25,803 bases of DNA from Escherichia phage CBA6. The stretch is taken from the sequence record KM389300.1; one strand, written 5' to 3'. The notes beneath the pieces are model-generated. The model was not told the origin of the DNA. It ran no database searches and saw only the letters and a program-made list of their open reading frames with translations. This document shows, piece after piece, positions 961-25,716 of the stretch. The translations under genes were made by a program, and so were the position numbers. Numbering within the stretch: the first letter of the stretch is position 1; each line of letters starts with the position of its first letter.

Positions 961-977
961 TTTGTTCAATGAGGAAG

Positions 978-1019
978 AGGGGTTTAAAATTTAACCGTTT
1001 ATAAACCCCTTCATTGATT
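978..1019 (+). terminator. hairpin, possible terminator or attenuator
   Basis: 9-bp stem AGGGGTTTA (978..986) / TAAACCCCT (1002..1010) with 15-nt loop, followed by a weak T-rich stretch; lies between two + strand genes. Confidence 0.4.
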
Positions 1020-1733: not shown

Positions 1734-1755
1734 GCCGAGATTCTCCTTTTCTATA

Positions 1756-1795
1756 CTCCTGTAGATACGCTATGATAAGCCAATGCCTACAGGAG
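1756..1795 (+). promoter_or_regulatory. SD-sequestering hairpin in the leader of the PLP-enzyme gene
   Basis: 9-bp perfect inverted repeat CTCCTGTAG (1756..1764) / CTACAGGAG (1787..1795); the 3' arm contains the SD AGGAG (1791..1795), 7 nt before ATG 1803. Confidence 0.4.
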
Positions 1796-3074: not shown

Positions 3075-3084
3075 TCCATCCTAA

Positions 3085-3112
3085 ATACCCCATACGGACC
3101 AGTGTGGGGTAT
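3085..3112 (+). promoter_or_regulatory. hairpin immediately upstream of the ART-like gene start
   Basis: 8-bp stem ATACCCCA (3085..3092) pairing with TGGGGTAT (3105..3112), 12-nt loop; the G-run (3106..3109) that could act as SD for ATG 3115 lies in the 3' arm; no T-tract. Confidence 0.35.
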
Positions 3113-3114
3113 CT

Positions 3115-3564
3115 ATGAAAACCTTTCTAGAATTTTATCGCGAATCAACGCTACCTGATTTTACGAATATCGTTTTGTATCATGGGTCTAATGTTGAATT
3201 CGATATATTTGATTTTGAAAAATTTGGCCAGACTGACTCTGGTACGATGGGTGCTGGGTTTTACCTGACGGGGGATCCAGAAAAGGCACAGATCTACGCA
3301 GAAAATGCCGTGCGCTATCGTCAATCTGGTGAACCTATTGTCATGGCATTTCGTGTCAAGGCCAAGAAGACTCTTGTAATAGATTCCAACAATGTTTCGG
3401 TGTGGGAAAATAAAATGCGAGAGTTGGGGATAAAGCCTGGTAAGATACATGATAATGTGAAAGAACTTATCAACAAAGGGTTCGATTCCATAGCCTCTAT
3501 AAGTGCCAATAACGTTGAGGAAATGGTGGTGTTTAAGCCAGGGTTGGCGACCAGAGAAGCCTAA
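3115..3564 (+). CDS. putative H-Y-E class ADP-ribosyltransferase (diphtheria toxin / PARP-like minimal catalytic domain), 149 aa
   Basis: YHGS (His23); GAGFYLTGD with Tyr50 and a second Tyr61 exactly 11 residues later (as in DT Tyr54/Tyr65 and PARP1 Tyr896/Tyr907); NNVEEMVVF (Glu135/Glu136) near the C-terminus; function is inferred from motifs only. Confidence 0.5.
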   Translation: MKTFLEFYRESTLPDFTNIVLYHGSNVEFDIFDFEKFGQTDSGTMGAGFYLTGDPEKAQIYAENAVRYRQSGEPIVMAFRVKAKKTLVIDSNNVSVWENKMRELGIKPGKIHDNVKELINKGFDSIASISANNVEEMVVFKPGLATREA

Positions 3565-3599
3565 ATAGTCCAAAGCGGTTTATTCAAGAGGACATTACC

Positions 3600-4058: not shown

Positions 4059-4088
4059 ACAAAGGGGCTTAATGCCCCTTTGTTTTAG
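4057..4088. terminator. bidirectional intrinsic terminator between convergent genes
   Basis: Stem AAAGGGGC (4061..4068) / GCCCCTTT (4074..4081), loop TTAAT; T-tract on both strands; sits between the + gene ending at 4058 and the - gene ending at 4085. Confidence 0.75.
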
Positions 4089-5577: not shown

Positions 5578-5626
5578 GATGTATTTCCTTCTCTTCAGAT
5601 TGTTGTTTGTTCGTACTACAATTAGA

Positions 5627-5655
5627 AGTATACGCCAGTTATTGAAGAAGTAAAC
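5627..5655 (-). promoter_or_regulatory. T4 early-type (sigma70-like) promoter on the - strand
   Basis: On the - strand: -35 GTTTAC (5655..5650), 17-nt spacer, -10 TATACT (5632..5627), with an A/T-rich block upstream (5656..5680); positioned to drive the gene starting at 5577. Confidence 0.5.
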
Positions 5656-5672
5656 TTTATTCAATAAATATT

Positions 5673-5926: not shown

Positions 5927-6499
5927 TTATTTCTTCAGATCAGGCCACGCACCAGAGGTCGCAGTAGACCCAGCTGGGGGAGCAGACTCAAGATCGGGAG
6001 AACCCGACTGAGTAACAACAGTGGGATCTTTGTTAACCACTTTGACCCCAAACTGTTTGAGAGCATCCACAGCTTGCGCCTTCCGGCTATTGCTTTTGTA
6101 ATGGTTGTACCCCTTGATACCGAATGATGCACTAATTGCTGTCAATAGCGAAGCAGTATACCAATCAGGCGCTGTTTCAAGGGCTTGCATACCATCAATT
6201 ACTGCTTTGATGAAATCCCCTTTATGATACTCGGTGGGGAACATTAGAAGTTCCACAACCGGAGCGATCATAACAAGGATAGCGGGAACAGCCAAAACGA
6301 TTGTCCAGAATTCATCTTTCCAAGATCCGCCGACTTCGGTAATCTTAGAAAGTTCCCATTCTGAAGAAGACTTTATTGCCTCCAGTTTAACATCGTGTTT
6401 AGCCTGAACAATTTCCCGCTTATATTGCACCAAATCAGTCCCAAGATTCCAGAGTTGCTTTAGCGCCCCTGGAATCATGCTCACAAAGGGGATTGCCAT
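5927..6499 (-). CDS. membrane protein (191 aa), central hydrophobic helix; divergent from the DNA polymerase gene
   Basis: Start ATG at 6499 (MAIPFVSM...) with SD GGAG 7 nt upstream; central TM segment FWTIVLAVPAILVMIAPVV; Ser/Thr/Pro-rich C-terminus; ORF extends to 6559 but without SD. Confidence 0.55.
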   Translation of the reverse strand: MAIPFVSMIPGALKQLWNLGTDLVQYKREIVQAKHDVKLEAIKSSSEWELSKITEVGGSWKDEFWTIVLAVPAILVMIAPVVELLMFPTEYHKGDFIKAVIDGMQALETAPDWYTASLLTAISASFGIKGYNHYKSNSRKAQAVDALKQFGVKVVNKDPTVVTQSGSPDLESAPPAGSTATSGAWPDLKK

Positions 6500-6528
6500 T
6501 TTAAACTCCTTGGTCATTGAACGTTCCT

Positions 6529-6568
6529 CGGTTAAATTACGGGGACGTGCTGACGGCACGGTTAACCG
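6529..6568 (+). promoter_or_regulatory. structured leader of the DNA polymerase gene, candidate translational operator
   Basis: Inner hairpin CGTGC (6546..6550) / GCACG (6556..6560) with loop TGACG, nested in an outer stem CGGTTAA (6529..6535) / TTAACCG (6562..6568) whose 3' end abuts the SD GGAG (6568..6571); ATG at 6579. Confidence 0.4.
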
Positions 6569-9575: not shown

Positions 9576-9588
9576 TTCAATAAAACAA

Positions 9589-9608
9589 AGGGGGATATAA
9601 TTCCCCCT
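9589..9608 (+). terminator. hairpin after the DNA polymerase gene, possible terminator
   Basis: Stem AGGGGGA (9589..9595) / TCCCCCT (9602..9608), loop TATAAT; preceded by TTCAATAAAA (9576..9585); T-tract is weak. Confidence 0.45.
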
Positions 9609-13800: not shown

Positions 13801-13968
13801 ATGTTACAAGATCTGTTGGTGTATGCGCTCCCAGGCGTGGTTGTTGGTTTCATTGCTGGCGCTCTGGTTTTTCGTAAACACGCGCAAGACGGTGAAGCCA
13901 TCGTCCAGAAAGGTAAAGAGATTCTGGACCAAATTGAAGCCAAGCTGGAAGAGCTGAAGAAAAAGTAA
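13801..13968 (+). CDS. small single-pass membrane protein (55 aa; below the ORF-track size cutoff)
   Basis: ATG at 13801 with SD GTGAGGA (13786..13792); TM segment LLVYALPGVVVGFIAGALVF; charged C-terminal helix; followed by a strong terminator. Confidence 0.45.
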   Translation: MLQDLLVYALPGVVVGFIAGALVFRKHAQDGEAIVQKGKEILDQIEAKLEELKKK

Positions 13969-13996
13969 TCTGACTGCGATTGCGTTCTTCAATAAA

Positions 13997-14034
13997 GGGG
14001 AATGGGTTATTATTAGCCCGTTCCCCTTTCTTTT
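13997..14034 (+). terminator. intrinsic terminator
   Basis: 10-bp stem GGGGAATGGG (13997..14006) / CCCGTTCCCC (14017..14026) with one G-U pair, then TTTCTTTT; preceded by the conserved 18-mer CGTTCTTCAATAAAGGGG (13983..14000). Confidence 0.75.
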
Positions 14035-14049
14035 ACAAGGAAATACATC

Positions 14050-14304
14050 ATGGCAATGCAACGAATTGAAGATATGGACTCCCTCGATATTGAATCTATG
14101 GTATCGGTGATTCTGGAAGAAGATCATAAAAATCCAACAAAATACCAGATGACTGAGTTAGGCGATGCTGATGCTCTTTGGAATATACTGAACGGCAACA
14201 AAAATTCCGGCAAGAGTGCGTTTGGTCTACTACATGGCGAGGGGCAAGGCGGTTTCCGTCGCGGTGAACTGAATATTATCTGTGCCGGAGGGATTACGAG
14301 ATGA
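14050..14304 (+). CDS. hypothetical protein (84 aa)
   Basis: ATG at 14050 with SD AAGGAAA (14037..14043); stop overlaps the next start (ATGA). Confidence 0.5.
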   Translation: MAMQRIEDMDSLDIESMVSVILEEDHKNPTKYQMTELGDADALWNILNGNKNSGKSAFGLLHGEGQGGFRRGELNIICAGGITR

Positions 14305-14687
14305 TGCGCCCCGAATACAAACAATATTTGTACGATCTGTTCATGAAAGAAACAGACGGCGTGTTACATCCTAAGAAAGCGACTATTGTTAAATTGCATT
14401 CTGAAGGTGATTTGTCTATTGCATATATTCGGAAAGAACTCGATTTGATGGGTATTGAATATGAAGACCATATCACTGATACACGTGCTTTAAAAAGAGC
14501 GACAGCAATCGTTCTTCATACCGTTGCAACAATTATGCATCGCCACCATGTTTCTTTTGACGATGCAATGACTCCACAGTATCATGAAGAACGTTGGGAT
14601 CTGTTGTTGAAAAATGGAGCTGAATCAGATCATAAAAATCAACTTCTTGGTATGACGAAGGAACAACTCGTGGATGGTGTGTTATGA
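14301..14687 (+). CDS. hypothetical protein (128 aa)
   Basis: ATG at 14301 with SD GGAGGG (14287..14292); stop overlaps the next start. Confidence 0.55.
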   Translation: MMRPEYKQYLYDLFMKETDGVLHPKKATIVKLHSEGDLSIAYIRKELDLMGIEYEDHITDTRALKRATAIVLHTVATIMHRHHVSFDDAMTPQYHEERWDLLLKNGAESDHKNQLLGMTKEQLVDGVL

Positions 14688-15793
14688 TTTACCTTCTGTT
14701 TGTGGTCCCTATTATTTTAGCCATATTGTTCGTGGTTTACCATCGCAAAACCCATGAACCAAAAGAAACGCTAATTGCTACTGCGATAGTGGTTGTATTA
14801 TCCTGTCTTATCCAGGCGGGAGCATACGCTGCATTTTCCCTGGGTAGTTCGGGAGATGTTGAAATTTTGAATGGGTACGTTACTGACAAGCAACGAAATA
14901 AGGTGGGTTGTAGCCATTCTTATGAATGTATGTGCTATTACACAACTTCTTGCTCTGGTTCAGGAAATAACCGATCTTGTACACAAACGCGTCATTGCAG
15001 CACGTGCTATGAGCACTCTTATGACGTTGATTGGGACGTATTAACAACCGTCGGGGATCTGAGCATTGACCGTATTGATCGTCAGGGTACTACAGAGCCT
15101 CCGCGTTGGGCGCAAGTTAAAATCGGAGAACCTGCAGCTCGTGAACATGCATATATGAACTATGTTCTGGGGAACAAGGATTCTTTATTCTCCAAATCTG
15201 ACCAACAATTCGCTGAGAAGTTCAAAGACCATATCCCGTCATATCCAAGGGTGTATGATTATTATCGGGTGACTCGTGTTCTGAATATGTCAGGGATGGA
15301 TATTCCCGTTGATTATTGGAATGATTATCTGAACAACACTTTGAAAACATTGGGGGCATCACGTCAGGTCAATATCGTGTGGGTAGTGACTTCTGGCCAG
15401 CCTGTGGAATATTTTCAGGGGCTGCTATATGCATGGTCTGGTGGTAAAAAGAACGATGTCATTGTGGTTACTGACATATCGAAGGATATGAAAATCAATT
15501 GGGGTAAATCCACGTCATTTGCTGATGGGATGAATAACATGGAACTCCATTCCCGAAACGGTCTTTCATTGACTGGCAAACCCATGGGGATATCAGTATT
15601 CCAAGAAGTTGCAGTCAATATCAGCAAAGGATATAACCGCGTTGAAATGAAGGAAATGGAGTATCTGAAATGGCGTGACCTCAAGACATGGGAAGTGATT
15701 ATCGTCGTTTTATTAGGTTGTGTTCCGTTTACCGCAATTTTCATATTAGGCCATATGCAGTACAATGGTCGCACTTACAAACGTTTGTTTTAA
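14684..15793 (+). CDS. membrane protein with Cys-rich domain (369 aa)
   Basis: Two N-terminal TM helices and one C-terminal TM helix (WEVIIVVLLGCVPFTAIFILG); Cys-rich stretch CSHSYECMCYYTTSCSGSGNNRSCTQTRHCSTCYEHSYD between them; directly upstream of the LemA-like gene. Confidence 0.6.
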   Translation: MIYLLFVVPIILAILFVVYHRKTHEPKETLIATAIVVVLSCLIQAGAYAAFSLGSSGDVEILNGYVTDKQRNKVGCSHSYECMCYYTTSCSGSGNNRSCTQTRHCSTCYEHSYDVDWDVLTTVGDLSIDRIDRQGTTEPPRWAQVKIGEPAAREHAYMNYVLGNKDSLFSKSDQQFAEKFKDHIPSYPRVYDYYRVTRVLNMSGMDIPVDYWNDYLNNTLKTLGASRQVNIVWVVTSGQPVEYFQGLLYAWSGGKKNDVIVVTDISKDMKINWGKSTSFADGMNNMELHSRNGLSLTGKPMGISVFQEVAVNISKGYNRVEMKEMEYLKWRDLKTWEVIIVVLLGCVPFTAIFILGHMQYNGRTYKRLF

Positions 15794-15808
15794 CAAGAGG
15801 AAGTAAAG

Positions 15809-16378
15809 ATGTCGCAGCGTAAAGGTATTTCAATTGGTTGGATCATCGGTTTGGCGATTCTGGCTTTTGTTGTAATCGGTGTTGGTAGTTTCGTCAGTTA
15901 TTTCAATGATTTCAATCGTATTGAACAGCAAGTCAAAAAGTTCAATAAAGATTCTGAAAACCATCTGAGCAACTATACAAACAAAGTACAAGAGACGGCT
16001 CAGATACCTGGCCTGTACAAAGACGGTCTGAAAGAAGTGATCAAAGATACTTTCCAGGGTCGTTATGGTGCTGATGGTTCAAAGGCGGTTATGCAATGGA
16101 TCCAGGAACAGAACATCCAGTTTGATTCAAGCCTGTACAAAGAAATTCAGGTGGTCATCAGTTCAGGACGTGATGAATTCCGTATCAGCCAGACAAAGAA
16201 ATTGGACGCGTGTGCTATCTATGAAACCAAACTCGGCCAGTTCCCTGGATCTGTCATTGCTGGCATCTTTGGATACCCTCGCATCGATCTTGACAAGACC
16301 TGTCAGGTGGTGAGCGATACCCGTACCCAGGCCGCGTTTGACTCTGGGGTTCAGAACCCAATTAATTTCAAAGGTTAG
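15809..16378 (+). CDS. LemA-family membrane protein (189 aa)
   Basis: ATG at 15809 with SD AAGAGGAAG (15795..15803); N-terminal TM helix GWIIGLAILAFVVIGVGSFV; LemA-like C-terminal motif QFPGSVIAGIFGYP (compare FPTNxVAxxFGF). Confidence 0.6.
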   Translation: MSQRKGISIGWIIGLAILAFVVIGVGSFVSYFNDFNRIEQQVKKFNKDSENHLSNYTNKVQETAQIPGLYKDGLKEVIKDTFQGRYGADGSKAVMQWIQEQNIQFDSSLYKEIQVVISSGRDEFRISQTKKLDACAIYETKLGQFPGSVIAGIFGYPRIDLDKTCQVVSDTRTQAAFDSGVQNPINFKG

Positions 16379-16381
16379 ACC

Positions 16382-16807
16382 ATGAGCGTGAAACTTACTG
16401 AATCTTTGACTCTGGAACAGCAACAGGCTTTGTTGGATGAAGTGGTGATCTCTGCTATCAAACAGGGGATCATCCGTGACGACACGTTGCTTACCCGTCC
16501 TGAGATGATCCATCATCTGGTGGTGTGCCTTGGTGAGGCGAATAATCCTCGTAAGAAGATTCGCATGTTCAAAGGCGGGGTGATTTATCCAAATGGCCGT
16601 TTCGCCTTCCTGGAGCCAGTGCTGAAGTCTGATGGTGCCCCAAATAACGTTGGTGATCATATCAAAACTTCAGTTCCGGTAACTCCATACACTGAAGGAG
16701 TTGATGAATTGTCTTGGTTTGAGACAATTAACACCATCTACATCATGTCGCCGGATGGCAAACCCGTCCAGGATCTGCGCGGTGATAAAGTAGAATCCAA
16801 AGACTAA
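16382..16807 (+). CDS. hypothetical protein (141 aa)
   Basis: ATG at 16382, 3 nt after the upstream stop; followed by a terminator. Confidence 0.55.
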   Translation: MSVKLTESLTLEQQQALLDEVVISAIKQGIIRDDTLLTRPEMIHHLVVCLGEANNPRKKIRMFKGGVIYPNGRFAFLEPVLKSDGAPNNVGDHIKTSVPVTPYTEGVDELSWFETINTIYIMSPDGKPVQDLRGDKVESKD

Positions 16808-16822
16808 TCGTTCTTCAATAAA

Positions 16823-16856
16823 GGGGGATAGGGTATTATTGCTCTATCCTCTTTTT
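16823..16856 (+). terminator. intrinsic terminator
   Basis: Stem around GGATAG (16826..16831) / CTATCC (16844..16849), extended by G-U pairs, then TTTTT (16852..16856); preceded by the same 18-mer CGTTCTTCAATAAAGGGG (16809..16826) as at 13983. Confidence 0.7.
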
Positions 16857-18412: not shown

Positions 18413-18436
18413 AAGCCTCCTTTTGGAGGCTTTTTC
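18413..18436 (+). terminator. intrinsic terminator
   Basis: Stem AAGCCTCC (18413..18420) / GGAGGCTT (18425..18432), loop TTTT, T-tract to 18436. Confidence 0.75.
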
Positions 18437-18512
18437 TATTGAGTCCCCCGCTAGTATCATACCCATACCCCAATAATGTGTTCCCTTTGAAACTGAATAG
18501 GAATTCTATACT

Positions 18513-21254
18513 ATGAAAATGCGCAAGTCTGAGCATTTCGTGCGCTCTTCTTCCACTATCGTCGGACAGACATTTAATGTCAAGATGACGGATAAATTAT
18601 TTGAAACATTATTTTCAAGTCTCTACAAATATAAAGAGGCCGCATCTTTGCGTGAGACGTTATGTAACGGTATAGACTCGCATAATATGCGTGATCGCCA
18701 ACAGCGTTGGTTGCCGTCCCATTATGCCCCTCTTACCCCTATGCCCCAAAGATACAGCAAGCATCTTGCTCCCAAAGGGACGCCCGTTGTGGTCCATTTA
18801 CCTGATGTTATGGAACCATGGTTGGAAATCAAGGATTATGGGATTGGCCTTCCGTTAGAAATGATTATCGGGGAACCTATCGCAGCGCGGGAAGATGAAG
18901 TGCTTGTCGAAGGCAACATTGTTGTGAAGGAAGATGAAATCCCTGACAGCACTGCTGTTATTGGGACGCCTGGTTATTACAATGGGGTGTTGGTATTCCG
19001 CGCTGAGGATGGCGAGATCATCCGCGGACCTGGTTTGTACACCACACTCTTCCACAGCACCAAAGAGGACGACGACGGGCAGATCGGCGCGTTCGGGCTG
19101 GGTTCTAAATCCCCATTTGCAGTGTCGGACTCATTTACTGTAGAAAGTCGTTATGAAGGTAAACTGTATCGCTTCCTTATGTATCTGAATGCGGACAGGA
19201 TTCCTACTGTGGACCTGATCACCAAGGATTTGGATACCCGTGATCCGAAACCAGAAGACACTGATGAGTTCAATGGTCTGACTGTTAAAGTGCCTGTAAA
19301 GAATCAGCGATTTACCGCATTTGAACAAGAACTGGTCCGTCTGGGTCGAGTTATGCGCCCATCAATGCGCCCGAAGGTTGAAAATGCCAGTTATTCTTTC
19401 CGCTGGCAGGACATCAATTTTGAAAACCGTGTGGGCAACACGTATATTCAGCCGAAGTCTGATTCTGATAATACCCACTATGCCGTTATGGGCGGGGTTT
19501 CTTATCCGATAGATCTTGAGCAATTGGATTCTGAAATACGTTCGGTGCTGGAGAAATTCCCGAGTTCCTATACATTCTTTGAACTTGGAGAATTGAATGT
19601 TCCTCCATCACGTGAAGACTTGTCATATGACGAGTTCACCCGTGAAAGCCTGAACCGAGTGTTCAAATATGTGGCTGACAATATTATGCAGGCGAAGATG
19701 TATGAACTTCGCCAGGCCGAATCTATGGGTCCTCTTATGCTTTATATGAAGAAGGCTCAATTGACCGATATGTTCGGTAGTGGTTTCCGTAAATTAGTGG
19801 AGCGAGAATTTCCTGCAGATAACCGTTTCTACAAAGGCACGTTCCGTTATATCGGAGCGCCGGACGTCGTGCGCGATTACTCTGTGGATGCACCTTTCCG
19901 GTCTATTGGTAGTCCTTACGAAATTGAAGTACACGACGACGGTGTAGTACACGACAGCATTTATGTGAACTCTGTCGGAAATTGGTTGAAATCTAAATCA
20001 AAAATTGCTGTTATTATTGATAACTCGAATCGTGCTCGAAACCTGAAGATACAAACAGCACGCAATAACTTCAATGTCGTTATCGTCGTCAAGCCGAATG
20101 AAAATTATTTCAGTAATCGGAATCAGCTGGCGGCACATAAAGAATCATTCACCAACCATGAGGAATTGAAGTCTTATTTTGAATCATGGATCGGTGTACA
20201 AGAAACAACACCGGACTACCTGGTCTTTGCCGATAAACTGATCGAGGTTTTTGGCGATTTATTCAATCCGGATGAAGTTTATTTCATGCATGAAATGGAA
20301 TATGTTCGCCCGACCGTTGAAAAAGATCCTGGGATGTTTAGTTTCCATTACAATTCATTTAACTTCGACAGCGTTTATGAATTGGATGGAAAAACCGTTT
20401 CAGATATTATTGATTCAGGCAAAAAGATCGTATATATCGAAGTATCTGGCCGAGAAGGTATCCATAAAATTCATGGTAATACCTTACGGCAATCCACGGC
20501 TGGACATTTGCGTGAAGCGATGGAAAGAACGAAGTTCGGCGAGAATGGAAACGAAAACATGTTTGATTTGCTGGGAGCGCATCCAACAATCGTTCTTGCG
20601 CGTCGTAAATCTGTTCCGATGATGAAGAAATTCCCAGAAGTATTCATCCCCATTGACGCAGTGTTTGATATGTTGCTTGAGCATTATAAAGATGAATTTC
20701 AGGCGCTTGAATCTAAGAAACTCCTGAAACTTCGCAAGGGCATAAACATCATGTCTCATCGCATTGATTATGGTGCCAAGCTGTTGATTGATTCCCATGG
20801 AGAAGTTACGGATGGCTATGCTCATCATCAACACAGGGCAAAAGCAATCATCGGTTATGCGAAACAACAAATCACTGAAGAAGAATGGAAGGTTGTTCGT
20901 ATGCTGGCCAAACGAAACCCGTCTGGATCGGGGTATGGTTATTTCCGCAAGGCGGTTGAGGAATTACATTATCGTATAGAAATGCCTTTCTCAACTACGA
21001 GATTTTTCCGCGCCTGTAACCAGTTAACTCAAGTTGTTGATTTATTGAATGAAAAATTAACTGCTGAAGGATTTGATGAGATAAAGGTCACTAGCACTAT
21101 ATCTCAAAAGCAAAAGGCCAAAAACCGATACCGAGTTGAATGTCATCGTTTGGTGAAATTCATGATGTCAAAATATCAGCCAACGGCGCATAATGCGATT
21201 GAAGATGCCACTAGATTTGTGAAGGCTATTTCAAAACGTATTCTCGGGGCATAA
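18513..21254 (+). CDS. rIIA: rIIA protein (913 aa)
   Basis: Clear resemblance to T4 rIIA as I recall it: N-terminal ATPase-like block FNVKMTDKLFETLFSSLYKYKEAASLRETLCNGIDSHNM, GAFGLGSKSPFAVSDSFTV, GGVSYPIDLEQLD, LNVPPSREDLSYDEFTRESLNRV. Confidence 0.9.
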   Translation: MKMRKSEHFVRSSSTIVGQTFNVKMTDKLFETLFSSLYKYKEAASLRETLCNGIDSHNMRDRQQRWLPSHYAPLTPMPQRYSKHLAPKGTPVVVHLPDVMEPWLEIKDYGIGLPLEMIIGEPIAAREDEVLVEGNIVVKEDEIPDSTAVIGTPGYYNGVLVFRAEDGEIIRGPGLYTTLFHSTKEDDDGQIGAFGLGSKSPFAVSDSFTVESRYEGKLYRFLMYLNADRIPTVDLITKDLDTRDPKPEDTDEFNGLTVKVPVKNQRFTAFEQELVRLGRVMRPSMRPKVENASYSFRWQDINFENRVGNTYIQPKSDSDNTHYAVMGGVSYPIDLEQLDSEIRSVLEKFPSSYTFFELGELNVPPSREDLSYDEFTRESLNRVFKYVADNIMQAKMYELRQAESMGPLMLYMKKAQLTDMFGSGFRKLVEREFPADNRFYKGTFRYIGAPDVVRDYSVDAPFRSIGSPYEIEVHDDGVVHDSIYVNSVGNWLKSKSKIAVIIDNSNRARNLKIQTARNNFNVVIVVKPNENYFSNRNQLAAHKESFTNHEELKSYFESWIGVQETTPDYLVFADKLIEVFGDLFNPDEVYFMHEMEYVRPTVEKDPGMFSFHYNSFNFDSVYELDGKTVSDIIDSGKKIVYIEVSGREGIHKIHGNTLRQSTAGHLREAMERTKFGENGNENMFDLLGAHPTIVLARRKSVPMMKKFPEVFIPIDAVFDMLLEHYKDEFQALESKKLLKLRKGINIMSHRIDYGAKLLIDSHGEVTDGYAHHQHRAKAIIGYAKQQITEEEWKVVRMLAKRNPSGSGYGYFRKAVEELHYRIEMPFSTTRFFRACNQLTQVVDLLNEKLTAEGFDEIKVTSTISQKQKAKNRYRVECHRLVKFMMSKYQPTAHNAIEDATRFVKAISKRILGA

Positions 21255-21261
21255 TAGCCCC
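21246..21261 (+). promoter_or_regulatory. hairpin spanning the rIIA stop codon
   Basis: GGGGC (21246..21250) / GCCCC (21257..21261) with loop ATAATA containing the rIIA stop TAA (21252..21254); no T-tract; 25 nt before the rIIB start. Confidence 0.35.
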
Positions 21262-25049: not shown

Positions 25050-25070
25050 AGAGGCTTCGGCCTCTTTTTC
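25050..25070 (+). terminator. intrinsic terminator
   Basis: Stem AGAGGC (25050..25055) / GCCTCT (25060..25065) with TTCG tetraloop, then TTTTTC. Confidence 0.8.
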
Positions 25071-25137
25071 ATTGTTGTGTCTAAGGGTATAATTTTTATG
25101 TTCCCCATGAGCGGAACGTAAATTCGAGGCTCCAACA

Positions 25138-25716
25138 ATGAAATCTTTAGTTAAACGAAAAGTAGAAGTATCCCTTAATGCGCATATTGAAATGCTACAA
25201 CAATTGGTTCTAGATGCGTATGAAATTCAAAAAGATCGCCGGATTCGTCACGACCTTGATCCCGCAGACAGTGGGAGCATGCTCTACTATCGAATGCTTC
25301 GCCAGACTGGTCACACTGCGGCGTTAAAGAAACTCCTTTCTGAAAAATTCCAAATTGAAAATGACATCGACGTATTCGGTGTATTTCACACTGCGGCGTT
25401 AAAGAAACTCCTTTCTGAAAAATTCCAAATTGAAAATGACATCGACGTATTCGGTGTATTTCACACTGCTCGTGAACGTGATACGTTTTTCACTCAATCG
25501 AAAAATGTAACCACAGGGGAGCAGTATGAAAAATTTGATCGAAAAGAGAAAACGTCGACCATGGCCAATTTTATGGGAACCAAAATCGACAAGGCCAATA
25601 TCATCGTGTTTTCAGATACTCTGCATGATGCTAAGCGCCTTTCCGCTGCCCATCAAATGTTAAAAGATAATCGCAGCTGCTTTACAAATTTGACTTTAGT
25701 AGTGTTTCTGGGCTAG
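25138..25716 (+). CDS. hypothetical protein (192 aa) containing a perfect 25-aa tandem duplication
   Basis: ATG at 25138 with SD GAGG (25124..25127); internal repeat HTAALKKLLSEKFQIENDIDVFGVF x2 encoded by identical 75-bp units. Confidence 0.6.
   Translation: MKSLVKRKVEVSLNAHIEMLQQLVLDAYEIQKDRRIRHDLDPADSGSMLYYRMLRQTGHTAALKKLLSEKFQIENDIDVFGVFHTAALKKLLSEKFQIENDIDVFGVFHTARERDTFFTQSKNVTTGEQYEKFDRKEKTSTMANFMGTKIDKANIIVFSDTLHDAKRLSAAHQMLKDNRSCFTNLTLVVFLG
25312..25461 (+). repeat. perfect 75-bp direct tandem duplication (2 copies), in frame within a CDS
   Basis: 25312..25386 and 25387..25461 are identical base for base; each copy begins CACACTGC, and the same 8-mer follows the second copy at 25462. 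Confidence 0.9.

Follow-up and report, generated by a model that had tools for sequence, protein, structure and literature searches.

Terminator hairpins sharing a TTCAAT box in a Vi01-like phage are probably composite terminator-promoter cassettes

Background

Why should the nucleotides leading into a terminator hairpin be kept letter for letter at two places in a phage genome? In a 25,803-nt stretch of Escherichia phage CBA6 (KM389300.1; hereafter the window), the 18-mer CGTTCTTCAATAAAGGGG occurs after two genes and in both cases runs into a hairpin. A preliminary description of these elements, and of a third relative behind the polymerase gene, treated them as a family of terminators and suggested that the unpaired part of the leader has a function beyond termination, as a processing site or a protein-binding site. 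Identity between the window and Salmonella phage Vi01 (Kuttervirus, Ackermannviridae) is 99.8%.

We consider it probable that the elements are composite cassettes, in which a terminator and a promoter of a Vi01-like (Kuttervirus) phage are combined. The most likely role of TTCAATAA, which lies within the leader, is at the DNA level, where it would be the upstream box of a promoter that uses the loop region as its -10. Three findings underlie this reading: a -10-like hexamer stands at a fixed 14 nt from the box, box and hexamer also occur together without a hairpin, and ordinary terminators lack the box.

Hairpins at the two copies of the 18-mer

The two copies of the 18-mer are exactly identical, as claimed, and both lie on the plus strand; with up to three mismatches allowed, no third match is found in the window (0.02 expected from shuffles). 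The copies and the features that follow them at sites 1 and 2 are listed below.

13983-14000, plus strand: first copy of the 18-mer (site 1), beginning 15 nt past the stop codon of a 55-aa ORF (13801-13968)
16809-16826, plus strand: second copy of the 18-mer (site 2), beginning 2 nt past the stop codon of an ORF (16382-16807)
5' arm 13994-14009, loop 14010-14013, 3' arm 14014-14029, plus strand: hairpin of site 1, -26.5 kcal/mol, z -6.6
5' arm 16820-16835, loop 16836-16839, 3' arm 16840-16855, plus strand: hairpin of site 2, -21.0 kcal/mol, z -6.2
14027-14034, plus strand: T-run TTTCTTTT of site 1, directly past the stem as in a terminator
16852-16856, plus strand: T-run TTTTT of site 2, directly past the stem as in a terminator

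Terminator-like hairpins do follow both copies, each with a folding energy far below that of shuffled sequence, and a stable G/C-rich hairpin stands close 3' of a stop codon at sites 1 and 2 and at the site behind the polymerase gene. At site 1 the T-run is followed by a Shine-Dalgarno-like AAGGA and then by an ATG at 14050. In the predicted folds of sites 1 and 2, 16 pairs enclose a 4-nt loop (UUAU), and the AAA of the leader is paired to the T-run. The stems are longer than had been described, and part of what was called the loop is paired. Changes on both sides of the stem that preserve pairing are likewise present and show that the stems are under selection for pairing: 7 of the 16 pairs are altered on both sides in a covariation alignment of 15 distinct copies, orthologous and paralogous, in which 93.3% of cells are paired and the observed level is reached by none of 500 shuffles. 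Rfam gave no match to a known RNA family across the entire window.

These properties would suit plain intrinsic terminators, in which TTCAATAAA is an A-rich leader that extends the stem via the T-run or makes the terminator bidirectional, and in which the loops are alike through descent from a duplicated element. The pairing of AAA with TTT in the predicted fold agrees with this, as do the TTTATT found past the hairpin on the minus strand and the scoring of the polymerase-site hairpin as a minus-strand terminator in a terminator scan. Orthologues have also been listed or annotated simply as terminators: the phage AG3 paper has a terminator, Torf248 (-22.9 kcal/mol), at the orthologue of site 1, and the phage Menlow annotation has terminators at the orthologues of sites 1 and 2. 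There are, however, no minus-strand genes here that need termination, and the evidence given in the next two sections leads us to regard plain termination as an unlikely full account.

A bipartite motif at fixed spacing

The third relative is real: TTCAATAAA occupies 9576-9584, and a 7-bp hairpin follows (9589-9608). When the three sites are compared, the 'unpaired leader' and the 'similar loop' appear as two halves of one DNA motif, TTCAAT-N14-TAnnnT. Common to all three is TTCAAT-N14-TA(T/A)(T/A)AT, with TTCAAT exact at 9576, 13988 and 16814 and a 14-nt spacer each time.

9576-9608, plus strand: polymerase site, with TTCAAT at 9576-9581, N14, and a perfect TATAAT at 9596-9601 in the hairpin loop
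13988-13995, plus strand: TTCAATAA box of site 1, at about -32 to -25 relative to the predicted start
16814-16821, plus strand: TTCAATAA box of site 2, a candidate upstream promoter box
14008-14013, plus strand: -10-like TATTAT of site 1, at the hairpin apex, 14 nt past TTCAAT
16834-16839, plus strand: -10-like TATTAT of site 2, 14 nt past TTCAAT

An A at position 2 and a T at position 6 are the signature of a sigma-70 -10 element. Both are kept in the TATTAT of sites 1 and 2, which matches TATAAT at five of six positions. Several observations count against the cassette reading: this hexamer is non-consensus, the TG of an extended -10 is absent, a 14-nt spacer lies outside the working range of sigma-70 -35/-10 recognition, the spacing at site 1 in the Vi01 reference is 13 nt, and TAnnnT would be expected by chance fairly often in AT-rich hairpin apexes.

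The hairpin of the polymerase site is weaker (-15.9 kcal/mol for a 50-nt stretch, z -3.3), and its stem is followed on the plus strand by GTTATCCC and not by a proper T-run; given this poor T-run, the terminator half of this element is doubtful. Its orthologue is given as a putative early promoter, Porf237, in the AG3 paper, which also has an overlapping promoter/terminator pair, Porf067/Torf069.

The family has far more than the three members originally noted. Four others lie in the window:

965-990, plus strand: TTCAAT-N14-TAAAAT in a GGGGTTT...AAACCCC hairpin, upstream of an ORF starting at 1032
1749-1776, plus strand: looser member, TTCTAT-N16-TATGAT in a long hairpin, upstream of an ORF starting at 1803
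18413-18460, plus strand: side-by-side version upstream of rIIA, a tetraloop terminator (18413-18432) and then TTCTAT-N15-TATCAT (18434-18460)
25068-25093, plus strand: side-by-side version, TTCATT-N14-TATAAT directly past the GGCTTCGGCC terminator and upstream of an ORF starting at 25138

Two familiar promoter types were considered and rejected. Canonical sigma-70 promoters fail as a general explanation, as sites 1 and 2 have no -35-like hexamer at a distance of 16-18 nt upstream from the one in the loop; TTGATT, at 18 nt, is found at the polymerase site only. Nor is TTCAATAAA a T4-type late promoter: the late motif of the family is CTAAATAcCcc and precedes structural genes, and a late start placed right at the hairpin would terminate itself.

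Conservation and genome-wide distribution

We compared copies from Kuttervirus, Agtrevirus, Limestonevirus, Taipeivirus and Miltonvirus. TTCAATAA is invariant in all 15 distinct copies aligned across genera. In the hexamer, the A at position 2 is invariant and position 6 is T in at least 90% of copies; orthologues of site 1 have TATTAT, TAATAT, TATATT or GATAAT, and the TATTAT of site 2 is unchanged in 16 of 16 distinct orthologues while the stem base varies. Stems diverge among genera with pairing kept, and in Taipeivirus, where site 1 has one G fewer and one C more, the spacing stays at 14. Plain terminators would not predict this pattern, since pairing is possible for the AAA only, yet TTCAAT is invariant among genera, and the apex hexamer is better conserved than the stem, with changes that keep the A and the final T.

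Across the Vi01 genome, with at most one mismatch permitted per motif half, matches peak sharply at a spacing of 14 nt (33, versus 6-19 at other spacings). In its intergenic DNA the 14-nt motif occurs 13 times, against 1.35 +/- 1.09 (maximum 4) in 300 dinucleotide shuffles. Enrichment outside genes, set beforehand as a refuting test, was strongly borne out, with 25 of 44 TTCAATAA copies falling in intergenic DNA, which makes up 7.6% of Vi01. Among the intergenic copies, 21 of 26 are oriented toward the following gene, whose start lies mostly 43-107 nt downstream, and the distance from -10 to start codon is 29-47 nt in the 17 clearest members. The distantly related Serratia phage 3M also has a peak at 14 nt (9 matches, versus 0-5 and typically about one elsewhere), and its copies are mostly without a hairpin.

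A spacing peak might have been a by-product of hairpin geometry; we reject this, because hairpin-free copies in Vi01 (26246, 55265, 137426 and 6579) and 3M hold the 14 nt. The same copies, those of 3M above all, tell against plain termination, which does not account for a box 14 nt from TATAAT where there is no hairpin. Conversely, Vi01 hairpins with a -10-like apex carry a TTC(A/T)(A/T)T box in 8 of 12 cases, whereas the 44 other hairpins are essentially without it (exact box in only two; Fisher's exact test for the contrast, P = 1.3e-5). Ordinary tetraloop terminators lack the box.

Proposed mode of action and alternative explanations

As RNA, the G/C-rich hairpin and T-run of a cassette would act as an intrinsic terminator for transcripts of the upstream gene; as DNA, the same stretch would be a phage promoter of the TTCAAT-N14-TATAAT type found throughout the family, its spacer filled by the 5' arm of the hairpin and its -10 hexamer forming the apex. 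Initiation would fall about 7 nt downstream of the -10, within the 3' arm, which by sigma-70 geometry would place the transcript start of site 1 at about 14019-14021, just upstream of the T-run. Having no 5' arm, the new transcript could not form the terminator and would therefore read on into the next gene, after a short leader, about 30 nt long, that contains a Shine-Dalgarno sequence. The net effect would be that read-through is stopped and transcription restarted at a set level between prereplicative genes. Termination, transcript start and the reader of the TTCAAT box are what we infer here from the sequence, and in the literature searched we found no 5'- or 3'-end mapping in any Ackermannviridae phage. 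The suggested role of TTCAATAA beyond termination is supported, most likely as that of an upstream promoter box; an RNA processing site finds no support, and a protein-binding site is retained only in the sense of DNA to which an activator or RNA polymerase would bind.

Normal sigma-70 -35/-10 recognition needs a spacer longer than 14 nt, which implies a phage factor or a -35-independent mode. One version of the former, to which we give little weight, is that TTCAATAA binds a putative phage transcription factor that drives the early-to-middle switch of Ackermannviridae, activating at cassettes and repressing at early promoters, with cruciform extrusion as an aid at the -10. In cassettes, where its position is about -32 to -25, the box would stand in for the absent -35 and so allow activation. 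In strong sigma-70-like early promoters of the form TTTACTTCTTCAATAA-N6-TATAYT, the box lies within the spacer, and protein bound to it would block RNA polymerase. Candidate early promoters with a TTCAATAA box in the spacer are the following:

Window 5654, minus strand
Vi01 99216
Vi01 63966
Vi01 144196

As to the cruciform, an inverted repeat of 16 bp has the -10 at its apex, and its extrusion on supercoiled DNA could give a single-stranded -10 and might in this way aid -35-independent opening.

Recombination could instead be the main cause of the likeness, the exact 18-mer included, with the cassettes serving as short homology patches for gene conversion and modular shuffling, a role that has been proposed for PeSLs, and with regulation secondary. 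The two sites are direct repeats at a distance of 2.8 kb that share 18 identical nt between unrelated flanks, and in T4-like phages exchange through PeSLs and the formation of mini-circles have been documented. Moreover, in SFP10 and EP75 a further gene, about 200 bp long, is inserted exactly at the 3' edge of site 1, so that homology with the window ends at 14041 and resumes at 14044, and Taipeivirus keeps the element without the genes on either side, although few junctions were examined in both comparisons. Against this, the homology of 18-45 nt is short, the elements keep their positions from genus to genus, as would be expected of function no less than of mobility, and functional constraint alone could explain the similarity. 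We regard recombination as the main cause as rather improbable.

The weakest alternative, that TTCAAUAAA is an RNA signal (a cut site for RNase E or a phage endoribonuclease, or a site for binding of a translational repressor beside the hairpin), is very improbable: although the motif is single-stranded, A/U-rich and immediately 5' of a stable hairpin, a setting that resembles the general context of RNase E sites, and RegA-like and putative RegB-like proteins are encoded in the phage family, this does not account for a -10-like hexamer at a fixed 14 nt, for copies without a hairpin or for copies at divergent promoter regions (e.g. Vi01 133994), the window has zero Rfam matches, and the motif differs from GGAG, the RegB site.

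Relation to known systems

The motif TTCAAT[N14]TATAAT was reportedly first described by Adriaenssens et al. in 2012 (Arch Virol, 'Viunalikevirus'). It is named as an Ackermannviridae regulatory motif in a 2020 paper (PMC7283392), whose text gives the motif and its positions only. The elements of the window share its hexamers and its 14-nt spacing, exactly at the polymerase site and with one -10 base off at sites 1 and 2, and they come from the same phage family, of which Vi01 (ViI) is itself a member. The motif is thus already in the literature for Vi01-like phages, and the preliminary observation is correct and the finding an ordinary one. In the literature examined on the motif there is no mention of a -10 at a terminator hairpin apex, of mapped transcripts or of a recognition factor.

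In design the cassettes resemble the PeSLs and PmSLs of T4-like myoviruses, in which a promoter and a terminator are likewise combined (Arbiol et al. 2010, PMC2839356; Comeau et al. 2014, PMC4122927). Each kind is repeated, lies between genes in an A/T-rich region just past a stop codon, and has a poly-G/poly-C stem-loop that either separates the promoter boxes or overlaps the -10. A Shine-Dalgarno sequence and start codon come next, and promoter and stem-loop are joined in one cassette. PmSLs of nt-1 also have TATTAT as their -10. The role of PeSLs and PmSLs is to stop upstream transcription and restart it, which for the Vi01-like cassettes we infer from sequence. PeSLs and PmSLs are associated with gene insertions and deletions, and the few junctions examined at site 1 (SFP10, EP75 and Taipeivirus) may reflect a similar association. 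The promoters differ: those of PeSLs are canonical sigma-70 promoters (TTGACA-N17-TATAAT or close) and PmSLs have a TGCTT Mot box, whereas the Vi01-like box is TTCAAT(AA) at 14 nt, in another phage family for which no MotA/AsiA is reported. Neither a sigma-70 consensus (-35, N17, -10) nor a Mot box with a -10 is found as the promoter part. With a TTCAAT box at 14 nt and no -35-like hexamer at 16-18 nt at sites 1 and 2, the cassettes are therefore PeSL-like in design and are not classed as members.

T4 middle promoters, which depend on sigma appropriation by MotA/AsiA, are similar in layout only. They too have a TAnnnT -10 without a usable -35, serve prereplicative genes, and carry a conserved box, about 8-9 bp long and centred near -30, that ends 12 nt ahead of the -10; TTCAATAA, however, is unrelated to (a/t)(a/t)TGCTT(t/c)A, and no MotA box is present. 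The 2011 CBA120 paper found no MotA or AsiA homologues in ViI-like phages and could not identify their early and middle promoters. With rho-independent terminators the cassettes share a G/C-rich stem and T-run just past a stop codon, at -21 to -26 kcal/mol, but they have a conserved -10-like apex in place of a free tetraloop, and a conserved non-pairing box at a fixed distance upstream.

Implications

The cassettes mark probable starts and ends of prereplicative transcription units in Kuttervirus phages, which are used therapeutically, and in their relatives, and their positions help in the annotation and engineering of phages of this group. As clean and conserved elements, they also offer a substrate for asking how host RNA polymerase handles a box that lies 14 nt from a -10.

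Leader and hairpins at the three sites

Salmonella phage Vi01 (Kuttervirus, Ackermannviridae) is 99.8% identical to the window, which spans the start point of the Vi01 record, and its complete genome was used as the genome-wide background for counts. All genes near the leader and hairpin sites lie on the + strand; the neighbours comprise the DNA polymerase gene and a series of small genes whose function is mostly unknown, and rIIA occupies window 18513-21254. The 18-mer leader CGTTCTTCAATAAAGGGG occurs exactly at 13983 and 16809, as the preliminary description had stated, with no further match in the window at up to three mismatches (0.02 expected). Both copies begin shortly 3' of a stop codon and lead into a hairpin and T-run, for which the predicted fold has a 16-pair stem and a 4-nt loop, the AAA of the leader pairing with the T-run.

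Predicted hairpins (z against shuffled controls for sites 1 and 2)
Site 1, 13983 copy, + strand: hairpin of -26.5 kcal/mol, z -6.6
Site 2, 16809 copy, + strand: hairpin of -21.0 kcal/mol, z -6.2
Site 0, 9576-9608, 3' of the polymerase gene: hairpin with a 7-bp stem, z -3.3, without a proper T-run

The third relative proposed after the polymerase gene is thus real but weaker. In an alignment of 15 distinct site 1 and site 2 copies from relatives, pairing is kept in 93.3% of cells and two-sided changes affect 7 of the 16 pairs, a result matched by none of the shuffles, so that the compensatory stem changes noted earlier are borne out.

A box at fixed spacing from the hairpin apex

Inspection of all TTCAATA occurrences in Vi01 brought out a motif common to the three sites: TTCAAT, within the box TTCAATAA, then exactly 14 nt, then a -10-like hexamer, TATTAT or TATAAT. 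This hexamer is the 'similar loop' of the preliminary description; it is indeed shared, but the stretch then taken as loop is partly paired. With one mismatch allowed per half, the 14-nt spacing yields 33 matches across Vi01, against 6-19 at other spacings; it is not accidental. The intergenic matches at 14 nt number 13, compared with 1.35 +/- 1.09 in dinucleotide shuffles (maximum 4, n = 300). The box is also enriched between genes across Vi01: 25 of 44 copies of TTCAATAA are intergenic although intergenic DNA makes up 7.6% of Vi01. Intergenic copies are mostly oriented to the next gene (21 of 26), and in the 17 clearest members the start codon lies 29-47 nt 3' of the hexamer.

Among 56 intergenic hairpins in Vi01, 12 have a -10-like apex, and eight of these carry the box. 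The other 44 are mainly GNRA or UUCG-type tetraloop terminators, of which only two have the exact box (Fisher p = 1.3e-5), both belonging to another promoter class. Hairpin-free copies of box and hexamer also occur in Vi01, one of them (133994) at the divergent region where the + strand gene block starts. Of the relatives examined, Serratia phage 3M (Miltonvirus) is the most distant; here too a -10-like hexamer lies most often 14 nt after an exact TTCAAT (nine copies, versus 0-5 and typically about one at other spacings), and most of these 14-nt copies have no enclosing hairpin. The hairpin census, the hairpin-free copies and the 3M peak together say that the box is a promoter property, not a terminator property. 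The sites are, as judged from sequence, terminators; the function beyond termination suggested for the leader is upheld, with promoter recognition, not RNA processing, its most likely form.

Conservation across genera

Sites 0, 1 and 2 occupy matching positions in Kuttervirus, Agtrevirus, Limestonevirus and Taipeivirus; Miltonvirus keeps sites 0 and 1 and has an ordinary terminator in place of site 2. TTCAATAA and the hexamer A at position 2 do not vary in the alignment, and at least 90% of copies have T at position 6; sigma-70 depends most on A(-11) and T(-7). As the site 1 hexamer varies among genera (TATTAT, TAATAT, TATATT or GATAAT), it is the -10 character that is preserved and not one particular sequence. 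In Taipeivirus site 1 the loss of a G is offset by the gain of a C, leaving the spacing at 14, and the 3M site 1 stem is completely different. At site 2 the hexamer is constant everywhere and the stem base variable. Because the loop is more constrained than the stem, this pattern argues for an apex read at the DNA level.

In Vi01 itself, site 1 (152532-152560) has a G-run (window 13997-14000) shorter by one G, giving 13-nt spacing, and the first base of the site 2 18-mer (155358; window 16809) is T where the window has C. Every other Kuttervirus copy examined agrees with the window. The Vi01 form may reflect a homopolymer sequencing error in that reference, or it may be a genuine variant. The site 1 orthologue of an IMG/VR Kuttervirus contig (L014, 2320-2380) has one U-G stem pair changed to C-A and another to U-A; its apex is altered to TAATAA, with a -10-like AATAAT only at 15-nt spacing, and it is the sole exception to the A/T rule within the alignment.

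At the few junctions examined, two phages show an additional gene, some 200 bp long, inserted exactly at the 3' edge of site 1.

Extra gene, between the 3' edge of the cassette (the proposed composite terminator-promoter element) and the next gene (window 14041-14044)
SFP10, 6345-6550
EP75, 6347-6552

Taipeivirus (Menlow) keeps the cassette without the upstream 55-aa ORF (13801-13968) or the downstream 84-aa ORF (14050-14304).

Other promoter-type and terminator-like elements

A second promoter class places the box differently. At window 5620-5665, minus strand (Vi01 144196), the sequence TTGAATAAAG-TTTACTTCTTCAATAACTGGCG-TATACT comprises a sigma-70-like -35 (TTTACT), a 16-nt spacer with TTCAATAA inside, and TATACT; further members lie at Vi01 99216, 63966, 58256 and 87411 and in 3M, and the AG3 list has an orthologue type as early promoter Porf138. 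CTAAATA(C/T)CCC, the late-promoter-type motif (CTAAATAcCcc) of Vi01's phage family, stands immediately 5' of structural and late genes (window 3081-3091, 3561-3567 and many Vi01 intergenic regions); at 3081 it is followed and overlapped by a ATACCCCATAC...GTGTGGGGTAT hairpin. The end of rIIA, at the rIIA/rIIB junction (window 21230-21260), has a small GGGG-CATAATAG-CCCC hairpin with a -10-like apex and TTCAAA 14 nt upstream, perhaps a degenerate copy belonging to the cassette family. At window 4061-4081, AAGGGGCTTAATGCCCCTT separates a + strand gene from neighbouring minus-strand genes; it is terminator-like on both strands in a consensus scan, and its AG3 orthologue is listed twice (Torf227 and Torf229).

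A possible point of stopping and restarting transcription

From this arrangement we infer a mechanism in which incoming transcripts would be terminated by the hairpin and T-run, while RNA polymerase at the apex -10 would initiate about 7 nt downstream, near 14020 and 16846, within the 3' arm. RNA begun there, without the 5' arm and hence unable to form the terminator, would reach the next gene through a leader some 30 nt long, and the net outcome would be a compact point for stopping and restarting transcription. As the literature searched yielded no transcript mapping, functional claims for the cassettes remain computational. The spacing of 14 nt is shorter than sigma-70 region 4 needs for -35 contact, and the -10 has no TG extension. 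In layout the sites are like T4 middle promoters, the box stopping 12 nt short of the -10, but its sequence is not that of the T4 box. MotA and AsiA are both reported absent in the CBA120 paper.

Novelty is low, as the motif is already published for Vi01's phage family and the cassette architecture is known from T4-like phages. The motif was reportedly first described in the 2012 proposal of the genus 'Viunalikevirus'. The elements listed in the AG3 paper include terminator Torf248, orthologous to site 1; promoter Porf237, orthologous to the polymerase site; and Porf067/Torf069, a promoter and a terminator that overlap, at the position orthologous to Vi01 38922. The Menlow annotation has terminators at sites 1 and 2. 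The same design is found in the PeSL/PmSL cassettes of T4-like phages, poly-G/poly-C stem-loops placed between promoter boxes or across the -10, which reporter assays showed to act as promoters and as terminators. These cassettes have been implicated in gene shuffling, an idea with which the SFP10 and EP75 insertion and the Taipeivirus gene absence would be in line. The recognition of a box at 14-nt spacing from the -10 lends itself to experiment.
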